24,780 nucleotides of DNA, from IMG/VR virus record IMGVR_UViG_3300022555_000015; one strand, written 5' to 3'. This document shows positions 16,300 through 24,013 of this stretch, in pieces; position 1 is the first letter of the stretch, and every line of letters starts with the position of its first letter. This DNA comes from a virus. Its lineage: Duplodnaviria; Heunggongvirae; Uroviricota; Caudoviricetes. Both the position numbers and the translations under genes were made by a program. Under the pieces are notes generated by a model. The model saw nothing but the letters and a program-made list of their open reading frames with translations. It made no database searches and was not told where the DNA came from.

Positions 16300-17451
16300 A
16301 TGCTCCGATCAGCAGAAGATGTGACCCTGTATCTGAAGACCATCAAGGGTCTTCGGGTGTGGTGGAAGAAGGTATCAGATCCTTCTTTTATCCATAATGC
16401 CAAGGATATGGCAGGGGTTACCTCTGTACTTGAGAAATTACAGAAGAATGTAGGTCTTTTAGAGGAACATCTCCTGTTCGGCCACGGTCTAGCACTACCC
16501 TCCTGGGCAGACCTGGATGAGAAACTAGGGGTAAAGCCCAGCTATTTAGATGAGTTCAGGGCACGCATTCCCAAGCTCATTGAGCAAGCCAAGAGCTACT
16601 TGGGAGAAGGTATTGACTACAACAACTGGCTCCTGGAGATAGTTACCCCAGGCACCTATGCGTACACAGAGGGCAGGGGTACATACCGGGACGTTCAGAA
16701 GAAGCATGAAGAAAACCCTGCGAAGTTCCTGGATGGTGCAAAAGCCGCTGCTCAAGGAAAAGTAGCTCTGGCTGACAAGGAGATATCCGGCAAACTCTTC
16801 AGGATGATGACTGCTTTCTTGAATGAACATGATCCTACAGGTGAGGGGCTCAAGAAACTGAGTTTACCCATTGAAGCAAACATAGGTAAGGTCAAGGTTG
16901 TCTTCGAAGGGGGACAGAAAGCTTTGCTTTCCAAGGGGCTCACCCGGAGGGACCCTAGGGACTTGGATGCCTACCTGCCCTACCTCATAGAAGCCAAGCA
17001 ACGCCTGTCTAGCAAGGGCTTTGATGACCTGTGGTATGGTCCTATCTTCATCCAGTGTGAAGAGTGTGGGGGGAAGAATCCTTTAGGTGCTAGTTTTGGG
17101 GTGGGTGCCCACTACTTCCATAACCGTGACTACATCTTCATCTACATGGACCCACAGAGGGCAATCGTACCTCTAGTTATTCATGAGCTAGGTCACAGGA
17201 TGTATTACAAATTTCTCGACCTGAAGGATCGTTCCCAATTCAATAGTTACTTTGGGAAAGTCCCAGCTACTTCAAAGTACGGAGATACCACACCTAGCGA
17301 GGATTTTGCAGAGGTATTCAGTAGTTTTATCATGGGGAGGGACCTTACACGGGATCAAATTGAGAGATTCAAAGCGTTTCTGGGTAAACAAGCCCCTCGG
17401 GTTTCACGAGTGGTTGCAATGTTTCAGGAGATTGGGGTATATAGGCACTGA
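16300..17451 (+). CDS. Protein with C-terminal zincin-like metallopeptidase domain
   Basis: LVIHELGHR (HExxH) followed by SKYGDTTPSEDFAEVF supplying the distal Glu ligand, as in anthrax lethal factor-like zincins. Confidence 0.75.
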   Translation: MLRSAEDVTLYLKTIKGLRVWWKKVSDPSFIHNAKDMAGVTSVLEKLQKNVGLLEEHLLFGHGLALPSWADLDEKLGVKPSYLDEFRARIPKLIEQAKSYLGEGIDYNNWLLEIVTPGTYAYTEGRGTYRDVQKKHEENPAKFLDGAKAAAQGKVALADKEISGKLFRMMTAFLNEHDPTGEGLKKLSLPIEANIGKVKVVFEGGQKALLSKGLTRRDPRDLDAYLPYLIEAKQRLSSKGFDDLWYGPIFIQCEECGGKNPLGASFGVGAHYFHNRDYIFIYMDPQRAIVPLVIHELGHRMYYKFLDLKDRSQFNSYFGKVPATSKYGDTTPSEDFAEVFSSFIMGRDLTRDQIERFKAFLGKQAPRVSRVVAMFQEIGVYRH

Positions 17452-17477: not shown

Positions 17478-18245
17478 GTGGACAAACCTTACGGTTCCAT
17501 CTACATTGCCATCTGTAAAATAAACGGGAAAGCCTATGTGGGCCAAACTACCTTTACTGTAGAGGAAAGATGGCAAAGGCATCTTGAGGACCATAAGGGG
17601 AAGTTTCTTTTCGGGAAGGCACTACTGAAACATGGATCTGAGAACTTCACCTTATGCACCTTGGACACGGCTTCGGATCAAAATGATCTGGACCAAAAAG
17701 AGATCCATTGGATTAAGGTCAAGGGAACTTTAGTTCCCCAGGGGTATAACTTAACTGAGGGGGGTCGGGGAGGGAAGCACTCTCAGGAGTCTAAGGACAA
17801 GATGAGTGCTAGTAGGAAAGGTAAACCTCTGTCAGAGGGACATCGTCTGAAAGTAGCAGCAGGGTTAAAAGCCAGATATGAATGGGAGAGATCACAAGGT
17901 ATTCATCGCCCCAAAACAGAAAAGCAATTACATCAACTCCGTACAGCTAACTTGGGAAAAACAGTTTCCCCAGAGGTTAGGGTACGAATGAGTGCAGCTA
18001 TGAGGGGTTTGAAACGGTCCCAAGAGGGATGTCTGAATATCAGTATTGGAAAGAAAGGTAAGTCCAATGGTCATGAGGGAAAGATGTTGACACCTGAAAC
18101 CAAAGCAAAAATAGGGTTGGCTAATACAGGGAAAAAACGTACCCCCGAAACTAAGGAAAAAATGCGGGAAGCTCAGATTCGTAGACAGGCTAAGAAACGT
18201 GCAGAAAAGATTTTGGGTCCAGGCTGGCTAGTGCCAGTCAGGTAG
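17478..18245 (+). CDS. Free-standing GIY-YIG homing endonuclease with NUMOD3 repeats
   Basis: GSIY...KAYVGQT...RWQRH...E...GYNLTEGG nuclease domain. Repeated HSQESKDKMS / SPEVRVRMS / TPETKAKIG / TPETKEKMR motifs. Confidence 0.85.
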   Translation: MDKPYGSIYIAICKINGKAYVGQTTFTVEERWQRHLEDHKGKFLFGKALLKHGSENFTLCTLDTASDQNDLDQKEIHWIKVKGTLVPQGYNLTEGGRGGKHSQESKDKMSASRKGKPLSEGHRLKVAAGLKARYEWERSQGIHRPKTEKQLHQLRTANLGKTVSPEVRVRMSAAMRGLKRSQEGCLNISIGKKGKSNGHEGKMLTPETKAKIGLANTGKKRTPETKEKMREAQIRRQAKKRAEKILGPGWLVPVR

Positions 18246-18320: not shown

Positions 18321-19523
18321 ATGGAAAAGACAGCTTGTATCGTTGCGGTTGGTGTTTGGGCAAACAAGAAGTGTTTATTGAAAAATCGTGACCGTAACTA
18401 CACGCCCGAAGTTAAGATTGTCCATGATCTTGTAGACGGTGTTGAAATCGCTTATATGAATGACCTTGGCACCGATTGGTGCGAAGGAATGAATGAGCAT
18501 TCCATCGGGATCGTGAATGCAGCCCTGATGGTGGGTCGAGACGAAGCAGAAAAGAAGATTGTCAACACGGTAGGGAAGAAGTCTAAGGATGGGGAACGCA
18601 TCCTCAAGGCTCTATCCTCCAAGAATCTGGAAGAAGCTGTCAAGAGTGTGGTTGAATACAACAGCGGTGTGAAAGGTCATACCTTTGTTGCTGACAGGGA
18701 TTCAACTAAATCTATTGAGATGACTTCCAAGCATGAGGCTGTGGTGAAGACCCTCAAGGGAGGGGTGGTCCATGTCAGGACCAACCACGGTTTTGCTTAC
18801 CCCAATGCAGGATACACTGAGGGTCCTAACTATGTATCCTCAGTGGCACGTAGGGATCAGGCTATGGAGGTTCTTCGGGACGAGGTAACTGAACCTGAAG
18901 ATATTGTCCCTGAGTTGATGCAGCACCGTCACGAAGACCTGGATGATCCGAATAACATGGTCCGTGATACGGATAACATGGCTACCACGTCTCAGATGGT
19001 CCTGAACCTGACCGACCGTGAGATTCTCTTCTATTGTGTTGATAAGAACTGCCAGTGGAAGGGCATCGAAAACCGACTCCCTGGTGGTAGGGAACCTAAG
19101 ATCAAAGTTCAGGTGTTTGAGTTCAAAGGCGACTCTTCTAAGCCAGTGAAAGTACCCTACAAAGAGTTCAAAGCTGAGAAGTCCAAATCTAAAGAGGCAA
19201 GTATGGTTGACCTAGCATCGAAGATAGCATCTGAATACATGAAGCAGGCTTCTGGGGAGTATCGCCTCCACTTAGTCACACAGCAGGCCCGTCAGAAGCT
19301 CCTCAAGATACTTGCCGAACTGAATAGAGTTGACAAGGACTACAGGGAAGAACTAGATAAGTTCAAATTCCCTGGGATGCAGAAAGCTGGAGACCCTCTG
19401 GAAGCTACATCAATCCTCAAGGATGGGGATGATGCTGGTGACCCAAGTGGGGAACTTCAGAAGTACATTGACTTCATGGAGAGGTCCGAAAAGGAACTCT
19501 TCGCAGCTAGCGGATTGGACTGA
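18321..19523 (+). CDS. Ntn-hydrolase-fold protein (C45/NRDE-like) with additional C-terminal domain
   Basis: Cys6 begins CIVAVG. LLKNRD, EGMNEHSIGIVN and HVRTNH match the Cys-type Ntn-hydrolase pattern. A separate region follows KEASMVDLASKIASEYMKQAS. Confidence 0.7.
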   Translation: MEKTACIVAVGVWANKKCLLKNRDRNYTPEVKIVHDLVDGVEIAYMNDLGTDWCEGMNEHSIGIVNAALMVGRDEAEKKIVNTVGKKSKDGERILKALSSKNLEEAVKSVVEYNSGVKGHTFVADRDSTKSIEMTSKHEAVVKTLKGGVVHVRTNHGFAYPNAGYTEGPNYVSSVARRDQAMEVLRDEVTEPEDIVPELMQHRHEDLDDPNNMVRDTDNMATTSQMVLNLTDREILFYCVDKNCQWKGIENRLPGGREPKIKVQVFEFKGDSSKPVKVPYKEFKAEKSKSKEASMVDLASKIASEYMKQASGEYRLHLVTQQARQKLLKILAELNRVDKDYREELDKFKFPGMQKAGDPLEATSILKDGDDAGDPSGELQKYIDFMERSEKELFAASGLD

Positions 19524-19526
19524 ACC

Positions 19527-20645
19527 ATGAGACCTGATGCAATCAAAGTGGCCTATCAGCACTACCTCACTTCCAGGGAATTTACTGAGACCCCAGGGGC
19601 AAAGGTAGCTAATAGATACCTCAAGGCAGTATCTATTGAGGAAGACCTCCCAACTCTGGAGAAGGCTCTCCTGAACCTGGAGAACCTTGACATGACCCTG
19701 ACGGCTATCGAGGATACCTACAATGACCACATGACCGGGAAGGTGGCATCGGTAGATATCCCAGATGTAGGACCTTATGTTACGTCCCAGCTAGAATCCC
19801 TGACTAAATCTCAGGAAGGGTTGAAAGCAGCCCTCCAGATTGAAGCTTCGGTCAAGCAAATCCTGGTAATGGACCCGGAGAACAAAACTGCCCAGCGAAC
19901 AGCGACCGACGCTGCTACGATGGTCAAGAGGTTCAAGAAGCACGAGGAAGAAGCCCGTGCAATGATTCGGGATATAGCAAAGAAGAAGACCCCCCCTGCC
20001 TTGAAGAAGATGGGAGATGCCGTCTTGAAGATACTCAAGACAAGGTTGGTTGACCCTGAATCTGTGACAATGATTCCATGGGTAGACCCTAAGACACATT
20101 TTTACACAGGAGGTAGCATGTCCCCAAAAATAGGGGTTGGCTACCTCCTGGTATTCTCATTCCCCGGTGTGGAAAAGGCAAATCGTCCTACCCTGGTAGA
20201 GAGTACTATATCCAACATTGGTGTTGAACTTATCTATAGTAATACGTCAACTCCCGCAACCGACCCCAAGATAGTAACAGACCTAATAGTCAAGTATCTT
20301 GGTGAATGGAACGGCATCAAGGGCAAGGCTGAAGAGGGAGCCGGTAGGGCTGAACTAGCCAAGACTGTACTCGGCATCATGGAAAGCATGGGTCGCAGGC
20401 TTGGGGAGATTCGTAGGGATGAGAGTGAAGTTCTGGATAACAACCGGAATCTTAGTGTAACCTTCCGCACCAATCTCCGTACTGAAAATTACGGGGAATA
20501 TGATGATGAATGGCAGGAAATAGTAAGTAGAGAGTACACGCAGCCTCTCAAGAAGGCACTAGCATCTTACATGGACAAGATAAAATCAGTGGGTGTGGAA
20601 AACAATGAGAAGGGCTACTGGTCCTTCTACGTCACCTTGAAGTAG
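19527..20645 (+). CDS. Hypothetical protein with KVA-containing leader
   Basis: 372-aa ORF starting 3 nt after the upstream stop. IKVAY, AKVANRY and GKVASV lie in the first ~75 aa. Confidence 0.75.
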   Translation: MRPDAIKVAYQHYLTSREFTETPGAKVANRYLKAVSIEEDLPTLEKALLNLENLDMTLTAIEDTYNDHMTGKVASVDIPDVGPYVTSQLESLTKSQEGLKAALQIEASVKQILVMDPENKTAQRTATDAATMVKRFKKHEEEARAMIRDIAKKKTPPALKKMGDAVLKILKTRLVDPESVTMIPWVDPKTHFYTGGSMSPKIGVGYLLVFSFPGVEKANRPTLVESTISNIGVELIYSNTSTPATDPKIVTDLIVKYLGEWNGIKGKAEEGAGRAELAKTVLGIMESMGRRLGEIRRDESEVLDNNRNLSVTFRTNLRTENYGEYDDEWQEIVSREYTQPLKKALASYMDKIKSVGVENNEKGYWSFYVTLK

Positions 20646-20677
20646 TCACTCGGCCCCAAAATGGGGTAATAGATGGG

Positions 20678-21724
20678 ATGGCACCACATCTCGTCTCTAC
20701 CACCCTCCAGATCCTACAAATTGCAGATGACCTCCGGGGCTCTGGAGTGCCCGAAGAGGTTGTCCAACCCTGGCTCACCCAAGCTATGCGGGAGTGCCTG
20801 GGTGATACCTCCGAACCCCTGCACGGGTTTGTACCGACCAAGGCTCCCCTCACTGTGCCGAAGACGGAAGACAATTCCTTCCAAGTCATCTCTGGCACTA
20901 ACCCTGTGTTTCCTGAAGAGAAACTGGTAATTATGTCCCAGGGGAAGGAAGGGACCGTTCCGAAGGGCTTTCAAGACCTGGAACCCAAGCAGCCCATCAG
21001 GGATGGGATTGTAGCCAAGGTCCAGGAGAAGGGTATCTCCGATCCTGAGCCTGGAACTCCTACCCTCGTTCCGAAGCTGGTATTGAAGGATGGTAAGCTG
21101 GTAGAGGCAGTTCCAGGACAGCCTCTTGAGGATCAGCCCACGTTGGGAACACCCCCTGAGTACCCCTCCCCGTTCGCTAGCCTTCCCCTGGAAGATGCCC
21201 CAGCCCCTCCCCCTGAGTCTATAGTGGACCAGGAAGTCCAGAAGGCACTGGCAGACCTTGAGCCTCTTGTTGAAGTTACCCACAAGGGAGTCATCAAGGA
21301 TGGCACGGTATACCTCTGTGTGGAAGAGATCATGCGAGACATGGGGGTGCCCGAAGAATTCATCACGTCAGGTCACCAGAGGGGAATCTCCCGTGTGGCA
21401 CTGAAGTCCATCAAGAGCAAGCTCCTGTTCCGTTACATTCTGAGGGCTGTCAACAAGTCCGGTAGTGACGTGAACCACTTTGGGGGTCCTGCCCTGGATA
21501 TCCTTCGGGATGTGGTGACGGCATGGCTCGCATCCAACCGGAAGGCAATCCTCAAGGTCAATCTCACCAAGCAGTTGGCAGATCAGCAGAGGTTCACACA
21601 GGAGATTGCCCGTCAGCAGTACACCAACCTCCAGGATGTACCCACCAAGGTTCTCTCACAGGAACTCTTCGGTGATAAGTCTGAGGGTATTGAGAAGCTC
21701 TTCGCCCAGGACCATATCTCCTAG
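20678..21724 (+). CDS. Hypothetical protein with Pro/Glu-rich central region
   Basis: 348-aa ORF in the + strand operon with a helical-looking C-terminus. Confidence 0.7.
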   Translation: MAPHLVSTTLQILQIADDLRGSGVPEEVVQPWLTQAMRECLGDTSEPLHGFVPTKAPLTVPKTEDNSFQVISGTNPVFPEEKLVIMSQGKEGTVPKGFQDLEPKQPIRDGIVAKVQEKGISDPEPGTPTLVPKLVLKDGKLVEAVPGQPLEDQPTLGTPPEYPSPFASLPLEDAPAPPPESIVDQEVQKALADLEPLVEVTHKGVIKDGTVYLCVEEIMRDMGVPEEFITSGHQRGISRVALKSIKSKLLFRYILRAVNKSGSDVNHFGGPALDILRDVVTAWLASNRKAILKVNLTKQLADQQRFTQEIARQQYTNLQDVPTKVLSQELFGDKSEGIEKLFAQDHIS

Positions 21725-21748
21725 ATATCCTATGGGTATGGTAGGGGT

Positions 21749-22546
21749 ATGGCAGATACTCCTGTAATCATTCCTTCCTGGCTCAACCCCAATGTAGAGC
21801 GTCCCTTCCACAAGGAGGGTCTCACCAAGGAACAGTTCGTTCTTGGGTGCATGACCTGTCTCCTTCATATAGGATGTGACCCTTTCCAGTCAGCGGGTGT
21901 GACAGCTAATACCTGTAATGAAGCCGCTTGGGGAAGTGCTGTAGTTTGTGGTAATGCCTTCGGGTGGAAGATTACCCAGAACTATGCAGACCACTATCGT
22001 ATCAAGAACGGGAAGCCTGCCCCATGGTGGAAGGCACCCGGTCACGTTGCCAGTGGAGACCCTGAGTGGTGCTTCTACCGGGCGTTTGAAAGTTACACTG
22101 AGGGGTTGCCTGAATGGCTCAGTGCCTTCACCCCCAAGCCTTCGGAGCTACCCATAGTCCCTACCCCTCCTGCCAAGGATTCCTACATCTATCGGCAGAC
22201 TGGAGAAGCATTCTGGAGTGGGGGTGACTGGTTCCCCTTGCTCTGCAAGGCAGGGTACAAGGGCCCGATCACCAAGGCCAAGCCAGATGCTTCCATAGCC
22301 GAACACAAGTCAATTGTTCATACAGTGCTAGCCATGTGGGCACAGTCCAGATTGACCTTTCAAGTACAGAGTGCCATCACTGATTACCAGATTGAGCAAA
22401 AGCTCAAGGTGACAAATAGATTGATGGTAGATGGGGACATTGGCCCTCAATCCATCAATGCCATCAAGGCATTCCAGAGGATGAAGGGGATGCCAGTAAC
22501 AGGTACTATGAGCGATGCTTTGATACTAGCCCTTGCCTGTACCTAG
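21749..22546 (+). CDS. Endolysin-like peptidoglycan hydrolase: GH73 glucosaminidase-like domain plus C-terminal PG_binding_1 domain
   Basis: NEAAWG (cf. LESGWG), NAFGWK (cf. NLFGIK), YRAFESY (cf. FRAYDS), AGY. C-terminal VDGDIGPQSINAIKAFQRMKGMPVTG. Confidence 0.8.
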   Translation: MADTPVIIPSWLNPNVERPFHKEGLTKEQFVLGCMTCLLHIGCDPFQSAGVTANTCNEAAWGSAVVCGNAFGWKITQNYADHYRIKNGKPAPWWKAPGHVASGDPEWCFYRAFESYTEGLPEWLSAFTPKPSELPIVPTPPAKDSYIYRQTGEAFWSGGDWFPLLCKAGYKGPITKAKPDASIAEHKSIVHTVLAMWAQSRLTFQVQSAITDYQIEQKLKVTNRLMVDGDIGPQSINAIKAFQRMKGMPVTGTMSDALILALACT

Positions 22547-22587
22547 TCTCCAGCAAAACTAAAAGTGTCCTGGGTGTAGGTTCATAG

Positions 22588-22788
22588 GTGCCCTATGGCT
22601 TACACTTATCAGGAACCCTTGTCATGCCTGGAAATATGGAACATCCCCCTGAATGGGAACAGAACGTACTAGATTGTATCATGGGGCTAGATCAGGAATT
22701 GAAATCAGCAAATGAGGAGCACTACAGAATGCTCTTAATTCACCTGATTTTAGACCTGGAAGAAGTGCTCAGAAAGCACAGAGACTAG
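22588..22788 (+). CDS. Small hypothetical protein (start uncertain)
   Basis: 66-aa ORF with an amphipathic C-terminal half, converging on groES with a 4-nt overlap. Alternative ATGs at 22624 and 22636. Confidence 0.35.
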   Translation: MPYGLHLSGTLVMPGNMEHPPEWEQNVLDCIMGLDQELKSANEEHYRMLLIHLILDLEEVLRKHRD

Positions 22789-23054
22789 CAGTAGATACCG
22801 AGGATGTCTTCCTGCCGAACAAGGATGTAGTCCTTGCCGTCGATCTTGACATCATTCCCACAGTACTTGCCGATTAGAACCACCTGACCCACGGTAACAG
22901 CCATCTCGACATCCTTGGTACCGGGCCCTACGGCAATCACGGTTCCGAGAGTCTGCTTCTCCTGGGCTGTAGGGGGGATGATCAGACCACTGGGGGTCTT
23001 GGTCTCGTTGTCATTTCGCTGAATGAGAACACGGTCATTGAGAGGCTTGAGCAT
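22785..23054 (-). CDS. groES: Co-chaperonin GroES (Cpn10)
   Basis: LKPLNDRVLI...KTPSGLIIP...GTVIAVGPG...VTVGQVVLIGKY...YILVRQEDIL. SD AAGGA. Confidence 0.97.
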   Translation of the reverse strand: MLKPLNDRVLIQRNDNETKTPSGLIIPPTAQEKQTLGTVIAVGPGTKDVEMAVTVGQVVLIGKYCGNDVKIDGKDYILVRQEDILGIYC

Positions 23055-23095
23055 AGGACAGTCCTTCGTTGTGGGATTACCACTGAAACGATACC

Positions 23096-23124
23096 CAAGT
23101 AGTTACTCTTTGGGGGACTGTCAA
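23096..23124 (-). promoter_or_regulatory. Possible sigma70-type promoter of groES
   Basis: Perfect TTGACA (23124-23119), a 17-bp spacer and a weak -10 (TACTTG), in the intergenic region. Confidence 0.3.
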
Positions 23125-23140
23125 CCTGTGATTGAAACTT

Positions 23141-24013
23141 CTAGCTACAGTAAGCCAACTGCTTACGGATGTAGTTCTTGATCCATACCAGTTCTGACCG
23201 GAGCTTGGTCAAGTCAGGCAGGATACGAGAGACGGGCTGGCCCTGGATAGCCTTGATCCGACGCATGGCAGGCTGCATGATCTTTGCGATCACGTCACCC
23301 ATGCTACGGTTCAGTTCCTTGTCCATCGCATCAGGGTTCCGCATGAGGGCAGAGATGATCCTGTCTGCATTCTCCATGTCAGCCAGAATCTCAGGGAGGT
23401 CTTTGCCTTCATCGAGCTCTCGGATAGCCCCGTCCACCTTCTCCTGAAGGCTACGGAGGCCAGGGATACACATGGTAGCAGACTGAGTGCCCCAGCCGAA
23501 CCCAGGCTTCCTGGTAAGGCCCACAGGGTACTGTCCCATTGGAAGACGTTCACCCGTTGTAGGGGAAACGTGCATCTTGGGGTTGTAGGAGTCCAGGTAG
23601 CCCTTGCCTACCTTCTCCCGGTAAATCTTTGCCATCTGCATCTGAGCCTGGGGCATAGACTCAAAGAATTCATCCTTGCTGTCTACACGGCCACTCTCAC
23701 CAGAGTCCGTCAAGGCTCCCCACCGACGCTTCAGGACTACTGTGTTTGATTCCTGAACAATCAGCATCTCATAGAACTTGGAATGGTTCTTCTCGGCATC
23801 AATGAAGTAGAGCATGGAACCTCTACCTTCCTTGACAGCCTGGAGGTTCAACCCTTCCTTCTCCATGATCGGCTTGTGAGCCAACTTGACCTGAAGGGAA
23901 GCCATCCGGTCAACGGAGGCTACTCGATCTACAGTCAGGATCGGTAGTAGGTCGGAACGGAACTCGGGGTGTTCGGCTGCGAGCCGGATGATCTTGCCAC
24001 GGAGAGTATTCAT
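23141..24013 (-). CDS. WGR-domain protein with N-terminal leader
   Basis: MLYFIDAEKNHSKFYEM...VLKRRWGA...AKIYREKVGKGY is a WGR-type pattern. It is preceded by a ~45-aa leader ending RVASVDRMASLQVKLA. Confidence 0.7.
   Translation of the reverse strand: MNTLRGKIIRLAAEHPEFRSDLLPILTVDRVASVDRMASLQVKLAHKPIMEKEGLNLQAVKEGRGSMLYFIDAEKNHSKFYEMLIVQESNTVVLKRRWGALTDSGESGRVDSKDEFFESMPQAQMQMAKIYREKVGKGYLDSYNPKMHVSPTTGERLPMGQYPVGLTRKPGFGWGTQSATMCIPGLRSLQEKVDGAIRELDEGKDLPEILADMENADRIISALMRNPDAMDKELNRSMGDVIAKIMQPAMRRIKAIQGQPVSRILPDLTKLRSELVWIKNYIRKQLAYCS

Follow-up and report, generated by a model that had tools for sequence, protein, structure and literature searches.

A basic-x-Ala motif as a probable head-protease site in unrelated proteins of an uncultured huge phage

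Introduction

To our knowledge, prohead-protease specificity has been established in just a few phages in culture (T4, phiKZ-like phages and HK97), and uncultured huge phages are not amenable to analysis on gels. The established motif of T4 gp21 is [LI]xE, and the herpesvirus assemblin follows the consensus (V/L/I)-x-A/S. In phiKZ and SPN3US, a single protease (gp175 and gp245, respectively) recognizes a three-residue motif in numerous proteins of the head and the ejection apparatus and matures them, cutting the propeptides several times; these enzymes cut after A/S/G-x-E, prefer Ser at P1' and cleave themselves (PMC10052503). Assemblin cuts an Ala-Ser bond, and its R-site, located after the protease domain, releases a scaffold-like C-terminal part (PMC4498786). 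Here we analyse the motif [KR]-x-A in three unrelated proteins encoded by a 24,780-nucleotide stretch of viral DNA (IMG/VR virus record IMGVR_UViG_3300022555_000015; the window in what follows): a putative N-terminal nucleophile (Ntn) hydrolase, a protein of unknown function that we call the 19527 protein, and a protein with a WGR domain.

A sequence-only reading of the window had proposed that clusters of this motif constitute a maturation system analogous to those of T4 and phiKZ but with a basic-x-Ala specificity. This idea has gained support from the register of the cut in the Ntn-hydrolase, from the enrichment of the motif in the scaffold and protease of related phages and from the co-variation of the site with the type of protease. 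We consider it probable that the [KR]xA proteins are precursors with address modules that are cut after Ala, most likely by the head-maturation protease of the phage. A literature search found no paper describing a [KR]xA specificity.

Results

Placement of the motif in the window

All the motif strings that had been reported are present in the respective genes. The Ntn protein (18321-19523, plus strand) contains KTA before Cys6 and KEA-S, KIA-S and KQA-S at residues 291-311; the 19527 protein (19527-20645, plus strand) contains KVA at residues 7, 26 and 72; and the WGR protein (23141-24013, minus strand) contains RLA at residue 10, RVA-S at residue 30, RMA-S at residue 36 and KLA-H at residue 43. 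Some of them sit inside longer conserved modules: IRLA is part of a helical hairpin tag, and an RVAxRY-type leader is represented twice, by IKVA-Y and AKVA-NRY.

The proposed test of motif density gave background values, both in the window and in the proteome of a relative, LR745208.1, an uncultured 485-kb phage whose PolA is 55% identical to that of the window. Plain [KR]xA occurs at 0.90 sites per 100 residues in the window, and observed versus shuffled counts were 4 versus 4.2 in the Ntn protein, 7 versus 3.8 in the 19527 protein (p 0.07) and 4 versus 3.0 in the WGR protein. The 559 open reading frames (ORFs) of LR745208.1 contain 1339 sites for 1313 expected, and K-x-A and R-x-A rank 112th and 266th among the 400 spaced pairs.

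Placement at domain boundaries, which had also been claimed, is nonrandom in the Ntn and WGR proteins, and the boundary sites are conserved among homologues in all three families. When the limits of the domains were taken from AlphaFold models (fold from about residue 45 in the WGR protein and at residues 6-285 in the Ntn protein), 8 of 8 sites fell within the 79 leader and linker residues, where 1.6 were expected (P 2e-4), and the 613 residues of the folded domains contained none for 5.6 expected (P 0.004). Moreover, the four-residue form [KR]xA-S, which was defined on independent data (the head proteins of relatives, see below) and then applied to the window, occurs 6 times in the three proteins for 0.67 expected (P 7e-5) and 5 times in the remaining 27 window proteins for 3.2 expected, the Ntn protein ranking first of the 30.

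The Ntn-hydrolase fixes the register of the predicted cut

The Ntn gene product comprises the following parts:

18321..18335, plus strand: leader of 5 residues, with K-T-A directly before Cys6 (sequence and homologue comparison)
18336..19175, plus strand: predicted Cys-Ntn-hydrolase domain, residues 6-285, without [KR]xA (AlphaFold model and Foldseek)
19176..19256, plus strand: inter-domain linker, residues 286-312, with KEA-S, KIA-S (within the RVAxRY-like KIASEYM) and KQA-S (sequence and low pLDDT)
19257..19520, plus strand: C-terminal helical domain of 88 residues (tblastn to LR745208.1)

The AlphaFold model of this protein (pLDDT 82.5) has its first strand at residues 7-12 and is of low confidence beyond residue 285. 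Its best Foldseek matches were IAT (2x1e and 2x1c), bile-salt hydrolases, NAAA and penicillin V acylase (PVA). According to this model, the protein has the alpha-beta-beta-alpha fold of Cys-Ntn-hydrolases, with Cys6, located at the start of strand 1 and invariant in the family alignment (A3), as the predicted N-terminal nucleophile. The Pfam scan of the window protein itself gave no match, PF03417 included, and PDB sequence and profile searches with the family returned nothing useful; PF03417 (C45/AAT-like) matched 22 of 35 homologues under an E limit of 0.1, the best value being 6.8e-8. In Cys-Ntn-hydrolases the catalytic Cys has to be residue 1. Given the predicted fold and the invariant Cys, Cys6 would therefore have to become residue 1, and this fixes the register of the cut.

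The residues found at this position are strongly biased. Among 119 Ntn homologues with leaders of 4-371 residues, Ala occupies P1 in 94, and all 94 of these have K or R at P3. In most leaders of at least 16 residues, an RVAxRY-type helix precedes Cys by a few residues; two leaders carry a hairpin, and leaders of either tag type end in [KR]xA before Cys. In fused homologues, an RVAxRY-type element is found at junctions and tails. One homologue (P0143) combines zincin and Ntn domains in a single protein of 690 residues, with a junction that ends in KNA-Cys.

The linker of the window protein contains three [KR]xA for 0.71 expected and, judging by its sequence (KIA-S...KQA-S), is an internal leader copy for the C-terminal domain. 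The 88-residue domain itself has a counterpart in LR745208.1 (38% identity over residues 317-393, by tblastn), where it is encoded by a separate small ORF (L001:5806-6228) with an N-terminal hairpin tag.

The residues before Cys co-vary with the type of head protease

The Ntn homologues from IMG/VR (L116-L195) could be sorted by the residues that precede Cys into a [KR]xA class (12 loci), an [LIVM]xE class (50 loci) and a class with a bare Met. There are thus apparently three activation modes in the phage family: a Met-Cys start, a leader of 7-12 residues ending in [LI]xE and a leader ending in [KR]xA. The Ntn homologue of the cultured Chryseobacterium phage MA9V-1 has LNE-Cys, and its genome encodes a gp21-type S77 protease; the PF03420 model recognized the S77 family there and in 10 further contigs.

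We compared these classes with the proteases in 20 larger contigs. In the [KR]xA class, S77 was found in 0 of 6 contigs and a protease like that of LR745208.1 (LR-type, described below) in 3 of 6, the three contigs without a match being fragments that are 24-42% complete. In the [LI]xE class the numbers were 7 of 11 for S77 and 0 of 11 for the LR-type protease, and S77 was present in 3 of 3 contigs of the Met-Cys class. As [LI]xE is the known S77 motif, the tripeptide before Cys appears to reflect the specificity of the head protease that the phage encodes. The residues before Cys follow the type of head protease and not the enzyme family, which suggests activation in trans. This co-variation is a prediction that came true rather than a statistical proof.

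The motif is enriched in the scaffold and protease of related phages

The head module of LR745208.1 encodes terminase, portal, a topoisomerase-HAD fusion, small proteins, a head-maturation protease (474 residues), a scaffold-like protein (422 residues), a hairpin-tagged ORF and the major capsid protein. The protease was identified through PHROG 18299 (E 1.9e-10); the PF03420 (S77), PF04586 and PF00574 models found no protease in LR745208.1, and Pfam scans of the protease homologues gave zinc-ribbon and intein matches only. Hint/intein insertions were observed inside the protease gene in four loci (L047, L052, L092 and L112).

After correction for composition, 4 of the 9 largest [KR]xA excesses among the 559 ORFs of LR745208.1 are in the head module. 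We then fetched 80 head-module loci from IMG/VR with the conserved capsid protein as query. The 25 dereplicated scaffold homologues contain 495 [KR]xA for 208-230 expected, with an excess in every one of them, and the protease family (293 versus 163) and the p211 family (128 versus 72) are also enriched. No significant excess was found in portal and topoisomerase; the count for the major capsid protein falls short of expectation, and p228 is clearly depleted (12 versus 30). KxA and RxA take the first and second rank, respectively, among all i/i+2 pairs in the scaffolds. In 33% of the scaffold sites the next residue is Ser, a 4.2-fold enrichment. [KR]xA-S occurs 161 times in the scaffolds for 17.6 expected (9-fold), and the reverse pattern 16 times for the same expectation; [KR]xA-S is the prevailing short motif in the scaffold and the protease of the relatives. 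The [KR]xA excess survives shuffling in blocks of 15 residues, and mirrored and re-spaced controls are at background. An excess of HxA in the scaffolds was not taken as part of the site, as it is due to a conserved H-P-A motif. When the pair test was applied to T4 gp22, gp67, gp68 and gp21 as a positive control, IxE and LxE came out as the top two; this recovery of the known gp21 motif validates the method.

The positions of the sites in these proteins are also conserved. Inspection of the protease N-termini, which had been suggested as a check, showed [KR]xA conserved at residues 5-7 and 25-27 in the relatives, and the family has a further conserved [KR]xA (K-[AV]-A) right after the catalytic domain. 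The scaffolds start with a conserved basic leader that ends in [KR]xA-[SN]. Furthermore, two relatives of the [KR]xA class have the Ntn gene within the head module, beside the protease gene, and in one of them the Ntn domain opens a protein of 2130 residues whose gene adjoins those of p211, p193 and the protease.

Several other products of these genomes deserve mention. For the major capsid protein (L028:11418-12293, minus strand; L031:14024-14896), identity between contigs of 200-620 kb is 88-94%. A K-L-A-A-S is conserved at its residues 25-29 and may represent the maturation site of this protein. The strongest [KR]xA and [KR]xA-S excess of the LR745208.1 genome is in a protein of 614 residues from no known family, encoded at 414655-416499 on the minus strand (L022:14655-16499) near the terminase gene, with 19 [KR]xA for 6.9 expected and 6 [KR]xA-S for 0.6 expected; it is a candidate head-internal protein. 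A search of PHROGs gave no name for the unknown proteins that are richest in the motif. The type IB topoisomerase-HAD fusion, encoded between the portal and protease genes (LR745208.1 404201-405727, minus strand, L022:4201-5727; L196 16230-18989; L197 5529-9932), ends in RVAxRY-type elements in LR745208.1, while in two relatives such elements are N-terminal; it is a candidate packaged DNA enzyme.

Two leader modules precede the site

Hairpin and RVAxRY leaders are common to the non-homologous Ntn, 19527 and WGR families and to many ORFs of LR745208.1, and 20 of 25 distinct hairpin tags are directly followed by [KR]xA-[AGS]. The motif had been read as a single code that both tags and matures its carriers. 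Our data are consistent with [KR]xA as a probable cut site and do not uphold the tripeptide as the tag; the address function lies probably in the longer hairpin and RVAxRY leaders. These are amphipathic, charged and devoid of a hydrophobic stretch, and cleavage of signal-type leaders by signal peptidase I (A-x-A) was rejected on this ground.

In the 19527 protein we distinguish:

19527..19568, plus strand: first RVAxRY-type leader copy, residues 1-14 (window-specific; a near-identical leader is present on the Ntn homologues P0157 and P0163)
19602..19622, plus strand: second RVAxRY-type leader copy, KVANRYL, residues 26-32 (conserved in the family)
19740..19751, plus strand: K-V-A-S site, residues 72-75, at the end of a helical pro-region of about 45 residues (family consensus)

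The first copy is missing from P0002 and P0003. In the second, V27, A28 and R30 are invariant in the family alignment (A4). Among 59 family representatives retrieved by a HMMER search, 28 have an RVAxRY-like leader and 3 a hairpin. The position of K72-V-A-S corresponds to H-[FY]-[KR]-x-A-[AS] in the family consensus, and 45 of 55 sequences have the Ala.

The WGR protein is organized as follows:

23933..24004, minus strand: helix-Pro-helix hairpin tag, residues 4-27, which includes IRLA (model and conservation)
23888..23932, minus strand: disordered linker, residues 28-42, with RVA-S and RMA-S (pLDDT below 50 for residues 28-43)
23879..23887, minus strand: K-L-A, residues 43-45, at the start of the fold, predicted final cut site (conservation)
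23144..23878, minus strand: WGR domain and helical C-terminal region, residues 46-290, without [KR]xA (PF05406 and model)

The match to PF05406 covers residues 67-142 with 36.1 bits (gathering cut-off, 22 bits), and the folded part contains no [KR]xA for 2.3 expected. The model places the two helices of the hairpin at residues 4-14 and 16-27, and L11, A12, P16 and R19 are invariant in the hairpins of 21 homologues. The linker varies in length among homologues, with a recurrent R[LM]A[ST] element, and the start of the fold is marked in the family by [KR]xA-[HN]-[KR]-P, with A45 invariant and P3 occupied by K or R in 20 of 21; in P0007 and P0010 this [KR]xA directly follows the hairpin. The long form of the protein is real, as a GAGGG ribosome-binding site precedes the ATG at 24013 and the N-terminal 45 residues are conserved. 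One public gene call (P0004, 224 residues) starts at Met67 and omits tag and linker. A Cys-containing module of about 35 residues (K-Y-P-W-D...C-I...Y-G-D...V-C-G) is present in the WGR homologues P0010 and P0016 (A1), C-terminal in one and between tag and domain in the other, and looks like a further portable element.

Gene content of the window

The 24.8-kb window covers a replication and accessory region, with genes for a helicase loader, a DnaB-type helicase, a primase, thymidine kinase, PolA, an SNF2 ATPase, a zincin-like protein and a GIY-YIG homing endonuclease, followed by those for the Ntn and 19527 proteins, a peptidoglycan-binding protein, GroES and the WGR protein. A megablast of the region against phages gave no match. 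The replication genes are syntenic with those of LR745208.1 at 40-60% identity, and the window comes from an uncultured huge phage related to LR745208.1.

The GIY-YIG gene (17478-18245) splits the zincin-like gene (16300-17451) from the Ntn gene (18321-19523). The PolA and DnaB proteins of LR745208.1 have 1758 and 950 residues (284690-289966 and 293815-296667) versus 899 and 506 in the window, and their alignments to the window proteins are fragmented, the pattern expected of inteins.

Discussion

The proposed mechanism is the following. Many unrelated proteins of this lineage would be made as precursors in which a short address module, either a helix-Pro-helix hairpin or a short RVAxRY-type helix, located at the N-terminus or at a domain junction, is followed by [KR]-x-A. 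The bond after Ala would be cut, P1' being usually Ser and otherwise Ala, Gly, Asn, His or Cys, and both the scaffold and the head-maturation protease itself would be further substrates, degraded and trimmed, respectively, by this enzyme at [KR]xA, much as happens at x-x-E with the proteases of T4 (gp21) and phiKZ/SPN3US. In the window, removal of the 5-residue leader would expose Cys6 and activate the Ntn-hydrolase, which would also be separated from its C-terminal 88-residue domain; the 19527 protein would lose its duplicated leader and pro-region, about 70 residues, and the WGR protein its hairpin and linker up to Ala45. We infer that cleavage occurs at these sites, that the head protease is its agent and that the three proteins travel in the capsid. 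The wider proposal, to which we give about an even chance, is that of a widespread lineage of huge, uncultured phages whose head proteases form an undescribed family and cut after [KR]-x-Ala, usually before Ser as assemblin does, with two interchangeable leaders serving to load, release and activate a large set of swappable capsid enzymes; among these would be an Ntn-hydrolase whose catalytic residue is unmasked by the [KR]xA cut only.

It could be argued that the motif is cut by an enzyme other than the head protease, either the zincin-like HExxH protein encoded at 16300-17451 or a host protease, in a cytoplasmic, polyprotein-like processing with no link to the capsid. The zincin gene is just upstream of the Ntn gene and is fused to it in P0143 through the KNA-Cys junction, and the window genes are in a replication and accessory region, as this explanation would have it. 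However, it leaves unexplained the 9-fold excess of [KR]xA-S in the scaffolds, the sites at the ends of the protease, the co-variation with the head protease and the Ntn genes in the head modules of relatives, and we think it unlikely. Quite unlikely, too, is that the motif is an uncut binding or structural element (a helix cap, a docking site or an R-x-x-S site of the basophilic-kinase type) and that the Ntn-hydrolase activates itself, even if autoprocessing is the rule in C45-type and related Ntn-hydrolases, the best fold matches are to IAT in its precursor and mature forms and R-x-x-S is likewise enriched in scaffolds. The fixed residue of the motif is Ala and not Ser, which may be replaced by Cys, His or Asn, and the kinase-site version was rejected for this reason. 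Moreover, the family has members with [LI]xE and members without leader, so that the fold needs no [KR]xA for activation, and self-processing hardly explains why S77 phages have precisely the gp21 motif instead. Finally, a three-residue motif with one wildcard is expected about once per 100 residues, and the examples could have been picked post hoc; the counts in the three proteins equal the shuffled expectation and the density in the proteome of the relative is at background. Chance is nevertheless very improbable in view of the placement of the sites (P 2e-4) and the excess of the independently defined four-residue form (P 7e-5), and it is already contradicted by the homologue data, that is, by conservation across three families and by the directional excess in scaffolds.

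We therefore favour cleavage after [KR]xA by the head protease, with several points that count against it. Ntn-hydrolases normally self-process. The Ntn, 19527 and WGR genes adjoin replication genes, not head genes, and the connection of the window phage to the head protease would run through relatives with syntenic, 40-60% identical replication genes. The LR-type protein is called a protease from PHROG 18299 and gene order only, and neither Pfam nor PDB sequence and profile searches gave a relative for it. The co-variation separates only two or three phage lineages and thus few independent events, and the z-scores of the enrichment tests are inflated by homologous sequences, the effect sizes being safer. 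Plain [KR]xA is at background, most of its occurrences are meaningless, and the tripeptide alone does not predict sites.

If [KR]xA-S is the cut site, mature ends and propeptides become predictable across hundreds of huge-phage genomes, as does the repertoire of enzymes that their capsids probably carry, and a defined cassette of leader plus site would be available for putting foreign proteins into capsids. The argument from the Ntn nucleophile gives a readout of phage protease specificity that needs nothing but sequence and reproduces the known T4 motif; if it is right, the tripeptide before the nucleophile would naturally report the specificity of the prohead protease in every phage with an Ntn-hydrolase.

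Our analysis suggests a head-maturation specificity, basic-x-Ala, that has not been described before, in a type of system that is otherwise familiar. In T4, the capsid targeting sequence (CTS) of IPI-III and Alt is, as here, a short N-terminal leader common to unrelated proteins that ends in the motif of the protease (gp21), and the scaffold and the ends of the protease itself are rich in this motif. The likeness extends to the Ntn homologues of S77-protease phages, with their leaders of 7-12 residues ending in [LI]xE. Unlike T4, the motif here is [KR]xA followed by Ser instead of [LI]xE, and it was read from sequence alone; the leaders are longer, with 16-30 residues, are of two types and are found also at domain junctions and C-terminal tails; and the LR-type protease is not of the S77 family, PF03420 being unmatched in LR745208.1 and in the 6 contigs of the [KR]xA class. 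The difference from phiKZ and SPN3US lies in the Ala at P1 and the basic residue at P3, as well as in the lineage and the protease family. At the level of the site, assemblin is similar, with Ala at P1, Ser at P1' and, in its R-site and C-terminal Ala, a counterpart of the K-[AV]-A that is conserved behind the phage protease domain, but P3 is hydrophobic in herpesviruses and K or R here. With IAT and other C45 enzymes, penicillin V acylase and NAAA, the window protein shares the Ntn fold and the need for Cys as residue 1; unlike in these autoproteolytic Cys-Ntn-hydrolases, the residues before Cys follow the type of phage head protease.

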